Positions 7,441 to 62,148 of a stretch of 64,000 bases of DNA are shown piece after piece. The notes under the pieces were generated by a model. It did no database searches. It was given only the letters and a program-made list of their open reading frames with translations, and was not told where the DNA came from. The stretch is from contig OX597815.1 in assembly GCA_951406725.2 (NCBI GenBank), positions 137,020,001 to 137,084,000 of the forward strand, written 5' to 3'. Each line of letters opens with the position of its first letter. Position 1 is the first letter of the stretch. The stretch comes from Octopus vulgaris. Lineage: Eukaryota. Made by a program: the position numbers and the translations under genes.

Positions 7441-9877
7441 GTTTTTTCTCCTACGTTTCAATGATAGGGATTTTTAAATTCGCCAGAAGCCAGCTCCTTC
7501 TTTACAAGAAGCCTGCAAAGACTTAAACATAGAAGAGAACGCATATGGTGGGCTTCTAGATGATTTACCTGCAGGTATTTTCACAAGATACTTGACAGCT
7601 CGTAGCTGCAGCAAAATGCACTTACCCAGAACATCACCCAGTATGATCGAACAATATGCTTGCAGCTCGACAAATGCAGGGAAAATAAAAGCTCTTGGAT
7701 ACGGATAAGGAGATTAGGAAGAACGAATGAGAAAACAGAACCAGACCAGCAGACGGCAAAGATGAGAAGGCTCTTTTGCAGCTCTAGAAAGGAAGATAAA
7801 GCGTTCAAACATCAAGTTTGTGTTCTAGAGATTAAAATGAGTTACCGAGAGATTTCGTGACTGGTTGGATAGTTTTCGTGGGATGTGAACTGTAATACAC
7901 GTAGGAGAACGGGTTGAAAAAGTAAATCCGTTATATATATGGGCATGATACTTCATTTTGGATCTGATGTGAACTTTGTTGTCGTTTGAAACTTTCTGGG
8001 ATTGAAGGATTTACTGGTAAGCAGAAGACAGGCAATCTTTCTAATAAAATTTCGGATTTGTTATTATTTTAGGTAACAGGAAAAACCTTTACTAATAGTG
8101 AAGCCTATAATTTGAAGAAACGATGAATGGTTTAGTTGAATGATATTCAGTTTTTAGTGTGAACGATGAATGTACAAATGAAAATGTAAGAAAAAAAAAC
8201 AAGAACAGAAATGAGAGTATCAGCAAGAAGAGTTGAGATATATAGTAATTCAGACATTCCATGTCGCAGACGAAGTCTTTCAAATCATCATTGATTATTT
8301 TGTTAAGATCGTGTATTGAAGCATCTGTAATTTATATTCACATACATCGCATCTGTAATTCGCTTTAAAGTTTCACCTTGTGCTACAAATACACACAAAC
8401 ATTCCCCTATGAACGTTGCAGAGGGTAATGTGTGTAGGTGTGTGCATGCTTCTGCATCAACGTCTATAACTATGTGCATATACGATGAGATAGAGGAAGC
8501 AGGAGTAGATGCAAAGAAAGATTAATGCTACGTGCGTTTGTATGTCTGTTTACATAACCACTAGACACACATAATATATATGAGTGTGTGTGTGTCTGTG
8601 TATGTGTAGACATGTATTTATATGTACATATGTATATAAGAATATACATGCTTATGTGTAGATGGACAGATACATACATACATATACAAGTCGTTATGTA
8701 CATTGCCTTTATACATATGTATATATGTGTGTGTCTGTGTGTGTGTCAGAGAGTGAGTGTATCTGCGTATGCGTATGTGAGTGCGCACAAATGTGTGTGT
8801 GTGTATGTATATATTTAACACTATGTAAATCGCAACCGTGATTTCTGTTCACAATGCTATAGAACACTTCAATCGTTTTAGGAACTAAACAAAATAAACT
8901 TTCAGATGTAAAATAACATGATGTAAATTACACAGCTACGTCTTTCTACATGCATGAAAACCTTAAATACAATTCAGTGAGATGGAGACCTTTTAGTATG
9001 GAAACAGCGATAATGATTTCTTGCAAAGCTGTTGACACGATTCCTAATAAAAGACATAACAGTGTTGTTAAGAAATTCGCTTTGAAACTACATGGTTAAC
9101 GACCTTGGTCTACTACCTGGTACCTTAATTCTCCTATTGAGCAAAGATGTGTGAGTTATTTTCATTTACATGGAATTTATATGAAGCTATTAGTATTTGC
9201 TATCTATATTAATTTTGTTTAATTATTGTTAATTTTTTTACTATTATTGGTATCAATAATAGTCATTATTTTAATTTATATTTTTAGTATCAATAATAGT
9301 TATTAGTAGGAGTAAAGAAAAAATCTTATTTATATCCACAGTTCTAAAAGCAAATGTGCTATAGACACATTACACGAAAGCAAGATCACTCATCACACAA
9401 TAGGGACAGCTGACCCAGGGATAAAAATATAACTCAATAAACAAAACTAATATTCCCTTACTTGAAGATGAATATAATCAAATTTCAAAAAGTGAACGAA
9501 CAGAAAGAAAGAAATCCGGAATATGAGTTTCACTCATGGTAACTACTGCAATATAATTTGAACGTTCACGTTCAAGTGGGAATAAATGTTACCTCTCTGT
9601 AATTACAAACTGGTTATGATATACAGTGGGCACGAACGTGTCAAGGAAACTGAAACGAAGGTATTATTAATGTAATAAGAAATAAACGAAGATTTGATGT
9701 AACAATCGTCTGTACCTGGTTGGTTACAATGGCACTTGGCTGACAATTAAAGATATATGTATGTTTGTGTGTTAGGTTATTTGCGTATGTGACGTTGTAT
9801 GTGTGTGAGTATGTGTGGACATATGCATATATAGATATAAACATACAAATACAATCACACGCATACACACACACACG

Positions 9878-54700: not shown

Positions 54701-56823
54701 TGCCTGGGGCAAAGTATCTCTAATGTTTATTTCACCTCACCTGTGTGTAATATAATAAAGTAAATCTCAATTGTATTTCTTGGGATCATTCTATTTTCTG
54801 TTGTTTGCATTTAAATGTTTGTTGGACTTTATTTGATTTGTCCTACATGCTCACCCATTTCTCATTTAAAAACTTGTTTTATTTTATCTGAAGTGAAAAT
54901 ACTGTATGTAATAATCGTATGTACTATATTAAGTATCTGATGTGCATTAGTGAGGTCTTTAAGAAATCACTTTCTACTGTTTTATTTTTATTATTATTTA
55001 TTCATTCACTTTTATCAACTTTGGTTTGGTCGCTAATAATATTATCGATGGAAAATACCTATATCAATTTCCTGCAGCTAACTCTCTCGTTTATTAATTC
55101 ATATTATATTAAATATAAATAGCAATTTTGTCATATCTTCGTGCATATTCTAACGCAACTTGAGTGGAGCATCCACCTTGTACTCGTATGTAGCTGAAGG
55201 TCTTATCAAAACTTACATACAACATTGAGTGGGGTCGCACTGATCCTGAACCACAAATGTCAGCCCTTCAGCAGTGACCCATGTAGTTCTATGTAGCTCT
55301 GTGTTAACTGCACTTAGGTTTATTTAATTCTTTGGGGGAATTGTCACTGGTAGAATGAAAGTTCCCTGATGATGTTCAATTCCTCGATTGCTCTCTAATT
55401 TAACTGTAACTCTGATGAATTTATTCATTCTACAATATATTCGTAATTATATGCTTGTGTCTATAATTTTTTGACGAATCTGTGTGTCGGGTAACTTGTT
55501 CAACAACATATCTCTATATTTTATTGTATATCGCATGAAACATTTCGTTTGGAAAGCGTTTAATAATTTCTTGTGGTGAACTGTCCTTTGTTTATTCGAA
55601 TAAAGTGTTTAATTCAGTTACTCTAGTTTTTTAAACCATATCAGATTTGTTTCCTCATTCTTCTAAGGCATATACCTGTGACGCGTTGTCAACTTTAACA
55701 GTCTGTAGTTCAAATTTTGCCAAAAGTCGTCTTGATTTTCTGTCGATTTATTTTATTCTGATGACTTATTTTATTAAATTTCATATTTTTGCCTACCCCG
55801 GCCTTTCGTTTTATTTATTCTTTCGATTGTTTTTACAGTCAGTGTGACTACGTAACTTGCAGCCGGAACATCCAGTGTCCTGACTCAGTACATTATATTT
55901 TACGGGTTATACCTGGATATATGCAAACTATATGGGATGGTCACGACTAAAATATCTTTCATCATAAGTCAGTTCGAATAGGGTTAATTTTGTGTTAGTC
56001 GACATTAGTAGTAACTATATATTAGGATTCAGTAGTAAATCGTTTTCTAATTAATTACCTTATGTTCATATTTTTGATATATTTCTGCTTATTCCGCTGA
56101 CGTTGGCTTTACCTTTCATCCTTTTGGGGTCGATAAAATAAGTCAATGTAACTGACTTATTGCTATCTTCGTGCCAAAATTTGGAACCAAAATGTGTGTA
56201 TGCTGAGTTTTGCTTCTACTATTGTTGCAGCGAACTGAGAGAATTGTTAGTGCGCCAGTAGAGTTGGGATGGGATTTTTAACAACCTTTCTTCCAGCCTT
56301 ACGCTCCAACTTCAACTCTATCACTGTTGTCTTCACATTATGTTTTTTTTTCCTTTCGAGATCGATAAAACAAGTAACAGTTGAGTTCTGGGATCGATAT
56401 AATCGACTAACCCACCTCTTCCTAGATTTACTGGTCATGCGCCATAATTTAAAACCGTTATTGTTGTTTAGCCCAAAAGTTCAGTGCTTATCCAGTACAC
56501 TTATGATTAATGTTATTTCGACCTTGGTGAACTTGTGACCGTTCTCTCTATTTCTCCTTTACACATACTACATACCTAGGGTTATATTATATACAATAAC
56601 CTATATTTTTAAGTCGTTAAATGTGTTATTTATTTAAGCTCCTGTTTCTAGCGAAATAGACGATTTGATATTCTTGGTACTTACCAATTTTTCAGTGTCT
56701 ATATTCGAGTATATACATGGCCTTGGTTTCGAATATTTGCAAATATTTCTGATATAACATATTCGAGTATGTATCTGCCGTTGTGTGTACATACATACAT
56801 ACATGCATGCATACATACATACA

Positions 56824-56980: not shown

Positions 56981-57058
56981 TTGTTTGTGCTAACTACATC
57001 CCAATGATGGAGACTTGTACCTTTGTGGAAGATTTATAATAATTAAAAAATAGAAGAG

Positions 57059-57104
<46 letters not shown>

Positions 57105-57151
57105 TATATGTATATACACACATATATATATATGCACACACACACACACAC

Positions 57152-57182
<31 letters not shown>

Positions 57183-57437
57183 TGTATGTATGTATGTATG
57201 TATGTATGTATGAAGACTCATTATGTTTAAATTTGTACTCAATTCAAAGGCGCCGCAGTAGATCACGTCCGTCTATGCAGTAACTAGTACTTCATTATCA
57301 AATCTGCACATTCTTTAATCTAGATAGTATGGTTTGATTGTAGAATGATTTCACTGTTTTCTTCCAGCAGGTCCAACGACCCACACTCGTTGGCTCGCTT
57401 ATATGAATAAACTGTATGTATACTTGTTTTTTAAGTA

Positions 57438-57954
57438 CCGTAAATCCTCGAGTATAGTCCGTACTTGAGTATAATACGCAGGGGATTTTTAGGGGGCTGT
57501 ACCTCTGAAAAGCCTAAACCTTGTGTATAATACGCTTCCCTTCTCTAACTTGAGTCAAGGAAGTCTAAATAACGTCCTTGGTTTGTAAAACTGTATACGG
57601 TAACGTCCTTTATTATTGTATATATAACATAATGCAAACGTGTAGCTTTTTGTGCATTTTGTTCGCAGAAAATAAAGAAATAACAGTAATAACAGTTATA
57701 ACGTTTAATAAATGTTGCTTACTGCATGTTATGGATGATTCTTTTATGACTTCATTGCTTTCAAGCTTAGCTTAAGGTATTTTCGCGCCCGACATCATAA
57801 AATGCGTCTGAATAAACATCTCCGGACAGCAAATAGAGATTCGGACATTGCTTAGAAAATAATTTTCATTTTAAACCTCGTATATAGTACGCACTAGGGA
57901 TTTTGACCTTTAAATTTTGGGGAAAAGATGCGGATTATACTCGAGGATTTACGG
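57438..57954. mobile_element. Non-autonomous Tc2/pogo-like DNA transposon (MITE)
   Basis: 24-bp TIRs CCGTAAATCCTCGAGTATA(G/A)TCCG with one mismatch, and TA on both flanks (57436-57437, 57955-57956). Confidence 0.9.
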
Positions 57955-58456
57955 TAATCGCGTAAATATAAACATAATCGTTTGTATATTTTTGAGTTCC
58001 TGAGTTATATGTTTGTTTACGCAACTGTTGATATATGCATCTGTATTTCATTACTTTAGCCGAAGTCATTTTAGTTCAAGATGTTTTAAATCATTGATAT
58101 CTTGTTTCATTAAAACAACATGATAATTTATAATAAAAACTTTAGCGTTTCATCGGAGATTTTAATGATTGTACTTATTTCCTTATTAGTCTTTCATGTT
58201 TAGATTGGGACAATAGTGTTCCTGACTTCATAAGCGCTCCAGCATCTTAGTTTAATTTGTGAATGATCTGATATTAGAGCGGTATTGCTCTTGCCTTTCA
58301 AATACGGGCAGAAATGGATCGTATAAACGTTGAAGTAAATGATAAAATCATCATTTCCGGTTTCAAATTCTTTAACTCTTTCCATACAATAATCTTCAAT
58401 GTGACGTTGTCGATGGTATTCTTGTTACTTGTTACTATCATTGCTGCTACTTCTGT

Positions 58457-58495
<39 letters not shown>

Positions 58496-59396
58496 AGTTG
58501 TTACTATTTTTGGTATTATTGTTGTTTAGTCCCGCTCAGCCTTCATCCGGAATTTATTTTTACGTGCAAGAAACTTAAGACCATATCCAACATCATTTTT
58601 ACTAAGGTGGAGAGGATGCGATTTGACTGCAAATTTTAGAAAATCGAGCAACCACTTAGAGGCTTCCTTCGGCAACAATTTACCAGTTGTTCTAATGTAT
58701 GACGGAAAAAAAAAAGATTCATATGGTGACTGCAAGCTGAAATTAGTTATGTTTCTGTGTTTAATATCGTTGTGGTTTCAAAGGCAACGAGCTAGCAGAA
58801 TTGTCAGCACGCCGGGCGAAATGTTAAGTGGCTTTCTTCCTGGTTTTACATTCTGACTTCAAATTCCACGAAGGTCGACTTTGCCTTTCATCCTTTCGGA
58901 GTCGATAAATTAAGTACCAATGAAACACTGGGTTCGATGTAATCCACCGAAATTTTAGGCCTTCTGCTTTTAATAGAAAGGTGTATCGTTGCGGTTTCAA
59001 TATCGTATAGCCAAAAGTGGACAAATCCAGCTGCTTTCTGTTCGCATGAAATCATTTCATTCTGATAACGGACAGTAAAACAGATATAACTTCGTATTAA
59101 AATGAAATAAGACAAAACACCGACGATACTGTTACCGTCATTTATCAAAGACTAACAAAACAACATTGTTTCTTTAAAACACACACACAAGCATATTTAT
59201 ACATATCTACATGAATATACATGTATATAAATATAAATATAAATATAAATACATATTACGGAGATGTACTCGCATAGCAAGTAATTTGATCTGAGATCGT
59301 GTGCTGAAACGAAAATAATTGCAGCGTGGAAGGTGTTTATAAGCCATTTAAGAAACACACAAAAGCCGTTCGATTCACTTCAACATTTAAGTTTAA

Positions 59397-59446
59397 TTTG
59401 TCAAAATATTTCCGTCGCTAAAATCCGCGACCTGTTCACTGACAAA
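59397..59446 (-). ncRNA. Hammerhead-like motif with G3-C8 core (GUGAACA); GAAA reads GGAA
   Basis: Reads TTTGTCA GTGAACA G GTCGC-GGATTTTA-GCGAC GGAA ATAT TT TGACAAA. Confidence 0.55.
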
Positions 59447-59466
59447 AATGAGATGCAGCACGGATT

Positions 59467-59516
59467 TTTGTCATTGAACAGGTCGCGGATTTTAGCGACG
59501 AAAATATTTTGACAAA
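59467..59516 (+). ncRNA. Mirror copy of the hammerhead-like motif; GAAA intact, position 3 reads U
   Basis: Reads TTTGTCA TTGAACA G GTCGC-GGATTTTA-GCGAC GAAA ATAT TT TGACAAA. Confidence 0.55.
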
Positions 59517-59865
59517 TTAAACTTAAATGTTGAAGTGAATCGAACGGCTTTTGTGTGTTTCTTAAATGGCTTATAAACACCTTCCACGCTGCAATTGTTG
59601 TATAAATACATAAATATACACGTATGTTTATGTGTGTGTATGTGCGTATGCGGTAGTGTTTGTGTGCGTTTGTATGTTAGAATAAGTTTATTATTTTAAA
59701 GCCAGTCTCGGGCTTAACAACAGAATATTTACTGGTGGGATGATTTAATATTGAGAGCAGTGTCAACTTGACTTTACAATGCATGCACATGCATATAATT
59801 TATAAATAATATATTTAATATATATTATATACACACACAAATACACGCACGCACACACCCACATG

Positions 59866-59948
<83 letters not shown>

Positions 59949-60589
59949 ACGATGAACAGTGCGCCCTATGGCTATTTTGACGAACTCATCTTCACAGTAA
60001 TAAACAAGAAATAAGTTCGAATGCATAATATTCGAAACGCAATTAATAGACAGAGTACCATAATATTTATCATTCTTAATCTCCTTTAATAAAATTTGAA
60101 TACATTTTTGTAGGTTTATCCGTAATAAATATACTTTTTTATCTTAATGAAGAAATGCCAACATATTATATGATGAAACAACGTATATAATTTATCCTTT
60201 AACAAAAAAAAAAAGGTTCTTGCGAACGAAAGATGCTTTAAAATGTACACGTAAAGGAATAAAAGGGTGGGGGAAGCGAAATACAGACGAAAATAATTTG
60301 AAAATATTGTATAAAGAAGTACATGCAAATATAAATAACTATATGAACACATGGGGAGATACACATACACAACAATATACACACAAACACACACACAAGC
60401 ACACACACATACATGCATGCATGCACAGGTCTGTGAGTGATGCTATGCATGTGTGCGTACAGCTACATGTGTGTGCATGTGTATATTTGTATATACATAT
60501 ATATAAATGCATACATGTGTGTGTATAAGTGTATGTATATATATATATATATAAATCCTTAAATCCTTAAAAATGTTTTAGCCCGAAGG

Positions 60590-60614
60590 TATGTATATAT
60601 ATATATATATATTC

Positions 60615-60646
<32 letters not shown>

Positions 60647-60725
60647 GTGTGTATGTATGTATATACATATGTATGAATATATATATATGTATGAATATAT
60701 ATATGTATTTATGTATATACATATG

Positions 60726-60771
<46 letters not shown>

Positions 60772-61570
60772 CATATGTATATATGTATATATGTATGTAT
60801 GTATATATATGTATATACATATGTATATATGTATATACATATGTATATATGTATATATGTATATATGTATGTATGTGTATATATGTATGTGTATATATAT
60901 ATATGTATATATTTATATGTATTTATGTATATATATGTATATATATTATGCAGATATTTAAACGTATGTGTGTACATATAGATTTGAGTGTATACATATA
61001 TATAACCACATAAACAATACTCCCACAGGTCTCACGTAGACACACACTCATACGCATATAAATATATATACACACATGTGTGCATGCATATATACACACA
61101 TGCATATGTGCAATTCATGCATGCATACATACACACAAGCATACATACAAACATACATAGACACATACATGCATACATACATACAAACATACATGCATAT
61201 AGGCATACATACGCACGTACATACATACATACATACATACAAACATGCAGGCATGCATACATACATACACACAAGCATACATACAAACATACATAGAAAC
61301 ATACATGCATACAGGCATACATACATACATACATACATACATACATACATACATACATACATACATGCATGCATACATACATACATACATACATACATAC
61401 ATGCATACATGCATACATACATACATACATACATACATACATACATACATACATACATACATACATACATGCATGCATGCATACATACATACATACATAC
61501 ATACATACATACATACATACATACATACATACATACATACATACATACATACACACATACATACATACAT
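60590..61570. repeat. Degenerate (TA/TATG)n and (CATA)n low-complexity block
   Basis: Directly visible. It is the source of many spurious YI/MYVC ORFs. Confidence 0.9.
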
Positions 61571-61832
61571 ATTATTAGTCTTTTTGAAGTGTGATCAATC
61601 GCGAGACGTATATTTTATCGTTCAGAAATTATTTCAAATATCAACAAGATAAACTCATCTCCGAAAGCAAAAATAAAAAGAAACACATCAAGCTTTATAA
61701 CAACAGTGGGTAAAAATGTAAGAATTAAAAAAAAAAAAAAAAGTTTGATATGGAAATGTCTAGGCAGAAAAAAATACGTGTGATTTCTTCATTGCGGTTT
61801 CTTGTTTTATATATTTATATGTTTATAGGCGT

Positions 61833-61941
<109 letters not shown>

Positions 61942-62148
61942 GTGTGTATGTGTGCGTGTTCGTGTGTTTCTTTGTATATTTCAGAAAAATTATAAACACA
62001 CGTAAATAATATGAATAAAGCAGTAAGGTAGATAGATAGCTACATACATATGAATATACATACGCACATACATACATACCCACCTACATATATTTTCATA
62101 TATATCTATCTGTTCGTATGCATATGTGGACATATATATGTGTAGGTT

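Follow-up and report, generated by a model that had tools for sequence, protein, structure and literature searches.

Family-wide G3-C8 hammerhead motifs in a Penelope-like element of Octopus vulgaris

A palindrome within a 64,000-nucleotide stretch of the Octopus vulgaris genome (contig OX597815.1, positions 137,020,001 to 137,084,000; hereafter the window) is probably a decayed head-to-head insertion of two terminal repeat (pLTR) copies of an autonomous Penelope-like element (PLE), in whose family the hammerhead motif carries G3-C8 in place of C3-G8. The C3-G8 pair is among the most conserved features of hammerheads. Since the family swap likely kept this tertiary pair, it has likely also kept weak self-cleavage, dependent on a dimer or on protein.

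The palindrome and its two hammerhead motifs

Of the 133 positions in each arm of the palindrome (59317-59449 and 59464-59596), 131 are complementary, and the arms enclose a 14-nt spacer. Their two mismatches lie at hammerhead position 3 (59439/59474) and at A13 (59412/59501). This is the geometry given in a first-pass annotation of the sequence, which had also correctly located the 7-bp stem I, the 5-bp stem II, the GAAA, the palindromic AATATT and the UUU triplet. An extra G between A9 and stem II, at 59481, was absent from that description; such a base before stem II is a known trait of PLE minimal hammerheads (PMC4209133). The parts of the locus are as follows.

59255..59316, minus strand: PLE tail of ~60 nt, on the left arm only; it spans codons ~11-31 at the start of the element's ORF and matches the L093 pLTR-ORF junction at 97%
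59317..59449, minus strand: left arm, a pLTR copy whose hammerhead retains G3-C8 and has A13G (from the arm comparison)
59397..59446, minus strand: left minimal type I hammerhead, with G3 at 59439, C8 at 59434 and the mutated position 13 at 59412
After 59404, minus strand: predicted cut site of the left hammerhead (mirrored from right-arm coordinates, i+j=118913)
59450, plus strand: single G before the AG of the spacer, foreign to the element and likely a copied cap
59450..59463, plus strand: spacer, being the 5' end of the right arm; the element match begins at 59451 with the AG of the family 5' end cluster
59464..59599, plus strand: right arm, pLTR copy without tail, whose 3' end is the nearer of two family 3' end sites
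59467..59516, plus strand: right minimal type I hammerhead (stem I 59467-73/59510-16; stem II 59482-86/59495-99)
59474-80, plus strand: core of the right hammerhead, a G3T mutant, with C8 at 59479 and the extra G at 59481
59500-03, 59503-08 and 59509, plus strand: GAAA, AATATT and U17 of the right hammerhead
59566, plus strand: ORF start codon in the right arm

Both copies have the layout of a minimal type I hammerhead, namely a three-way junction with stems I and II, a palindromic helix III segment and an NUH cleavage site; helix III is predicted to be unstable in the monomer. The core reads GUGAACA...GAAA instead of CUGANGA...GAAA, and its nine remaining bases are canonical. Position 3 is G in the left, minus-strand copy and T in the right, plus-strand copy, while position 13 is G in the left copy. 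No hammerhead appeared among the 150 Rfam matches listed, out of 185, for positions 57000-62000 (E<=10).

The palindrome as a whole is predicted to fold into a single hairpin (-219.8 kcal/mol). As its two ribozymes lie on opposite strands, the locus is unable to form an active dimer; this inverted pair also differs from the tandem hammerhead units that, along with circular RNA, define non-LTR retrozymes. No ORF remnant of the element was found within the window. The locus is a pLTR-only inverted insertion, that is, a head-to-head pair of PLE terminal repeats, a form already described for these elements (PMC8557442).

A Penelope-like element linked to the repeat

A downstream 28-mer has 9,575 exact matches in the genome searched (2.8 Gb, 227 contigs), and of 4,843 candidates in a protein search 150 were scored as matches. 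In longer copies, the repeat is preceded upstream by a microsatellite-rich stretch of ~1 kb and then by a GIY-YIG end. Stop-free frames of 1025 and 839 aa contain YVDD, a CX3CxxC linker and YIGETSR, with the hammerhead ~1.0 kb downstream. In one locus (L093), the repeat is continuous with the ORF start MAYKHLPRC, and the left arm and tail of the window encode the same start: read in frame on the minus strand, the tail at 59255..59316 completes the translation MAYKHLPRC...RVHLRN, as in L093. The PLE origin proposed from the repeat alone is thus borne out by linked RT-GIY-YIG frames.

Sequence motifs place a reverse transcriptase and, at the C-terminus, a GIY-YIG endonuclease in a single ORF linked to the repeat, as in endonuclease-bearing (EN+) PLEs. 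The structure of the copies agrees, with pLTRs, partial tandems, inverted 5'-truncated copies and an optional tail. A Pfam search of the ORF itself matched no family; among 20 aligned homologues, RVT_1 was found in 7 and GIY-YIG in 5. Among named proteins, the closest comes from Octopus vulgaris (54% identity). A CX2-5CxxC linker between RT and EN and a bias towards insertion in microsatellites mark the Neptune clade (PMC8557442). Both are seen here, as C-QSN-C-AV-C in L090/L091 and as (TA)n flanks, and the CX3CxxC linker suggests Neptune and not Poseidon. The element is also present in contigs of four sequencing runs, a form of data in which RNA ends are invisible.

In one array (L021:968-2671), some ten short pLTR units follow one another, most of them in head-to-tail orientation and with (TA)n in between; it resembles a retrozyme array and could be a source of hammerhead dimer. 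A second candidate, at C28:25.046-25.070 Mb (L061-L063), was rejected as a PLE tandem. It is a host segment of ~5.2 kb, duplicated in tandem, which contains pLTR copies and an open frame of 316 aa.

The core swap is the family norm

The first-pass annotation had proposed GUGAACA...GAAA as the family core, and genome-wide copy counts agree with it. Exact 22-mers have G at position 3 in 5,534 matches and another base in 152 (~62 A, 28 T and 10 C by eye among the 100 listed); matches without C8 number 324 and those without A13 number 56. For an unbiased sample we took the first 100 matches to the downstream anchor on C1, which gave 81 loci, or 75 with 115 copies after six duplicates were dropped. 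Here G3 is present in 74 of 76 copies, C8 in 75 of 82 and A13 in 87 of 88, with the remaining core bases at 97-100%.

Approached from the endonuclease ends, 45 of 62 rows have a downstream hammerhead, comprising 39 with G3-C8, 6 with G3·G8 and none with C3; three rows are the same copy fetched twice, and L067 (T3, damaged stem II) was missed by the pattern. The family falls into three loop-II groups. Most copies in each group carry G3-C8, and in the youngest it is fixed, even as loop II itself has diverged. C3-G8 copies within the family (L141, L147) are too few for a subfamily. Further, less common families also bear hammerheads, with different helix III segments (L158, L173, L177); the last has U at both 3 and 8.

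The position of the two mismatches at the locus had earlier been read, post hoc, as each copy having been hit once in its catalytic core. Under such a reading, copies would be enriched for core-inactivating changes, as only uncleaved, ribozyme-dead RNAs or stable palindromes would survive. The coincidence has an a priori chance of 0.6%, and position 8 is more variable genome-wide than position 3 (324 vs 152). However, across 35 independent palindromes the arms differ at 9 of 217 core positions (4.1%) and at 91 of 2102 others (4.3%; Fisher p=1.0), non-A13 matches are just 56 genome-wide, and the excess at position 8 is partly due to one G8 lineage. We consider the enrichment highly improbable. 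As the core rate is not raised above that elsewhere, the pair of core hits is attributable to chance, T3 and G13 being variants of ~1% each. Whole-genome counts also disposed of the idea that T3 and G13 are widespread inherited alleles; that impression arose from a search bias towards rare words.

Covariation with sister families

A sister pattern that excludes G3 and C8 has 2,205 matches in the genome, vs 65 for a control. Among 30 such loci fetched, 21 carry C3-G8 and share with the family the extra G and the GUC/GAC stem II base. The C3-G8 families have related endonucleases on their upstream side (L243, L244, L251) and, on their downstream side, a 1,312-aa frame that is 54% identical to the family ORF (RT ~54%). 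When 14 metagenome relatives were scanned permitting any 3-8 pair, two had a hammerhead, both C3-G8; these outgroups are L327 (47% RT identity) and L331. Since C3-G8 is found in both the sister families and the metagenome outgroups, G3-C8 is the derived state.

In an alignment of 31 rows, the 3-8 pair is CG in 22, GC in 8 and other in 1, and double changes also occur in stems I, II and III. Of the alignment cells, 82% pair, vs 27-50% for slid controls. The rows were hand-picked (30 of the 53 listed plus both window arms), with most non-pairing variants omitted, and the Watson-Crick 3-8 pair of nearly all aligned rows reflects one event in this chosen set. The compensatory nature of the swap, suggested earlier from the core alone, is supported here by covariation of the pair against homologous sister families. 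At the level of sequence, the change from C3-G8 to G3-C8 is a real, derived covariation, and a single evolutionary event, not many.

A G3·G8 lineage was also identified, with 163 matches and independent insertions in different flanks. The tree of endonucleases has a long root branch and low support, and does not separate the order of G3·G8 and G3-C8; G3·G8 may be either an intermediate or a reversion. A family with a fixed swap provides evolutionary evidence for selection on the 3-8 pair in PLE minimal hammerheads, and the three states G3-C8, G3·G8 and C3-G8, carried by related elements within a single genome, form a matched natural set.

The G3·G8 lineage has its own loop II and linked endonuclease ends, and 36 of its 100 matches listed are on C16. 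There they cluster at ~1.3-11.5 Mb and 42-56 Mb (L340-L345), with different flanks, for which local hopping and a chromosome-specific history are alternative explanations. In L270, a sister PLE whose open frame runs to 1,312 aa, both hammerheads (7530-7583 and 2932-2985) carry A9C, a variant that occurs twice in L159. Fifty matches to the G3-C8 pattern in viral contigs were set aside as chance, as none has an extended stem II plus a convincing stem I and helix III.

Insertion anatomy

Head-to-head pairs account for 39 of the 75 independent family loci sampled, so the palindromic form of the locus is not unusual. Exactly one arm is tailed in all 45 palindromes of the sample (39 after 6 duplicates were removed). 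Measured from the cut site, the 3' ends of 115 copies fall at +77..+99 in 46 and at +138..+148 in 67, both within the ORF start. The 5' ends (n=115) cluster at -61..-55 of the cut site in 45 copies, with 3 lying within 3 nt of the cut site itself. Among 57 junctions, a G comes next in 14 of the 16 that end at the AG of the 5' end site, or in 10 of 12 when partner-arm cases are left out (p=8e-4), and a TATA-like stretch starts 30 nt upstream of the 5' end site. The one-tail rule and the 5' end cluster with its extra G together suggest complete cDNAs, running from two internal RT starts to the capped end of the RNA. We infer that the short copies are such cDNAs of uncleaved, capped RNA, which the G at 59450 fits.

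Alternatively, the 5' end cluster could reflect splicing, as in Penelope of D. virilis: the site would be the 3' end of an intron, with its branch point, pyrimidine tract and YAG, and the short copies would be made from spliced RNA. The region immediately upstream of the 5' end site does contain CTAAC, a pyrimidine run and CAG/TAG, and the Penelope intron ends at helix I, according to the main text of PMC4209133. Against this, the sequences upstream of the junctions listed share no exon sequence, and a start site would account for the single extra G and for the TATA-like stretch at -30; we regard splicing as rather unlikely and retain the capped RNA end as the preferred reading.

At least four sampled palindromes (L282, L279, L232, L216), and also L046, L056 and L059, have arms of differing loop-II subfamily type, which makes it likely that each insertion used two RNA templates. 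Seven identical palindromes on C1, all within its first 33 Mb (L229, L298, L299, L302, L303, L308, L325), were rejected as separate insertions; they represent one insertion inside a larger repeat of >1.1 kb and were counted once.

A mechanism can be proposed from these features. Transcription by RNA polymerase II would begin ~58 nt before the cut site, with the TATA-like stretch lying 30 nt further upstream. The RT-endonuclease, likely dimeric, would nick both strands of (TA)n or AT-rich DNA, and reverse transcription would begin at two positions inside the ORF, both within its first ~30 codons, copying uncleaved RNA up to its capped 5' end. The outcome would be one tailed and one untailed arm, head to head, an anatomy that is observed, by a mechanism modelled on that in the main text of PMC11167929. 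Cutting by the hammerhead would be confined to tandem transcripts or would call for the protein of the element, and would be dispensable for some insertions. At the present locus, each ribozyme copy carries one ordinary point mutation, and, with the copies on opposite strands, read-through RNA is predicted to form a long hairpin. The strictness of the one-tail rule supports, in vivo, the two-start-site model derived from the only PLE reconstituted in vitro.

Does the G3-C8 hammerhead cut?

We lean slightly towards residual self-cleavage by the family ribozyme. A double-hammerhead dimer is predicted at -28.8 kcal/mol, about equal to two monomers (2 x -14.1) and less stable than a non-catalytic dimer (-32.7), so that the catalytic dimer fold would be accessible, not favoured. 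In a PLE hammerhead that needs protein, an engineered C3G/G8C gives partial rescue (PMC11167929; PMC8495972), and an engineered G3-C8 variant is mentioned in PMC3884650. Cleavage does not appear to be strictly needed, since the G3·G8 lineage, predicted to be inactive, has inserted, and A9C occurs in both hammerheads of the sister whose ORF is intact.

The motif might instead be a relic, with dead or negligible catalysis, kept as an RNA fold or as a protein-binding or translation element of the pLTR, with the swap reached by drift through G3·G8. That the G3·G8 and A9C lineages transposed is consistent with this, as are the cut site without a 5' end peak and the report that insertion of the anole element in vitro is unaffected by hammerhead mutants (PMC11167929). 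Yet just positions 3 and 8 of the eleven core positions changed, with pairing restored, for which a random pair has a chance of ~1 in 165, and G3-C8 is held by most copies of all three loop-II groups, up to fixation in the youngest, despite the divergence of loop II. The missing end peak is weakened as an argument by the anole ribozyme, which cuts in vitro and shows no cut-site ends in RNA-seq (PMC11167929). We therefore hold a catalytic relic to be unlikely.

More tentatively, retained catalysis and the insertion model may be combined: a natural, active G3-C8 hammerhead would have become fixed in a young family of thousands of copies, via a G3·G8 state that survives as a lineage, and each palindrome would be the trace of a dimeric RT that had copied two separate capped RNA molecules, starting at a different internal site on each. 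If an active G3-C8 class does exist, CUGANGA and U3-A8 descriptors miss it, and some ‘hammerhead-less’ PLEs may have it; ribozyme searches need a G3-C8 descriptor.

Relation to known systems

Lunse et al. are said to report about 150,000 PLE variants. No natural G3-C8 hammerhead was found in the main texts of the literature searched, which included two reviews (PMC6765202, PMC6155905) and had Lunse et al. outside its scope. PLE minimal hammerheads and natural U3-A8 are already published (PMC4209133, PMC3088659), and natural G3-C8 is what is new here with respect to those texts. The G3-C8 of this family is likely to be the natural form of an otherwise laboratory-made variant.

The closest description is that of the metazoan PLE pLTR hammerheads (Cervera and de la Pena 2014, PMC4209133). 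These likewise are of type I and have an extra base between 9 and 10.1, G10.1-C11.1, a palindromic 15-16 segment, a location in the pLTR and thousands of solo or inverted copies. The octopus family differs in its G3-C8 swap, which is absent from the text there, and in its 7-bp helix I and 5-bp helix II. Natural 3-8 covariation is known as U3-A8 in Schistosoma (PMC4209133), and this is also the one covariation named in the main text of a survey of natural core variants (Perreault et al. 2011, PMC3088659).

The Anolis Poseidon element PAc (Frangieh et al. 2024, PMC11167929), as its main text has it, shares with the family two internal RT starts in the ORF that define the tail, AT-rich targets, the cutting and extension of both strands and uncleaved RNA as template. 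C3G/G8C was engineered in PAc and is partly active there, whereas in the octopus the double change is natural. The family ORF starts ~56 nt past the cut site, while that of PAc starts inside the ribozyme; the ~60-nt tail and the CX3CxxC linker further distinguish the family from PAc. The non-LTR retrozymes (bioRxiv 10.64898/2026.07.22.740005) are, in the text of that preprint, likewise short PLE-derived units that are non-coding and contain a type I hammerhead. Retrozymes run from cut site to cut site in tandem, whereas family units span the transcript start to the RT starts and are mostly solo or inverted.

The window also holds a short dispersed repeat at 56091-56143, 56346-56375 and 58863-58915. 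We take this repeat to resemble the end of a common octopus SINE.
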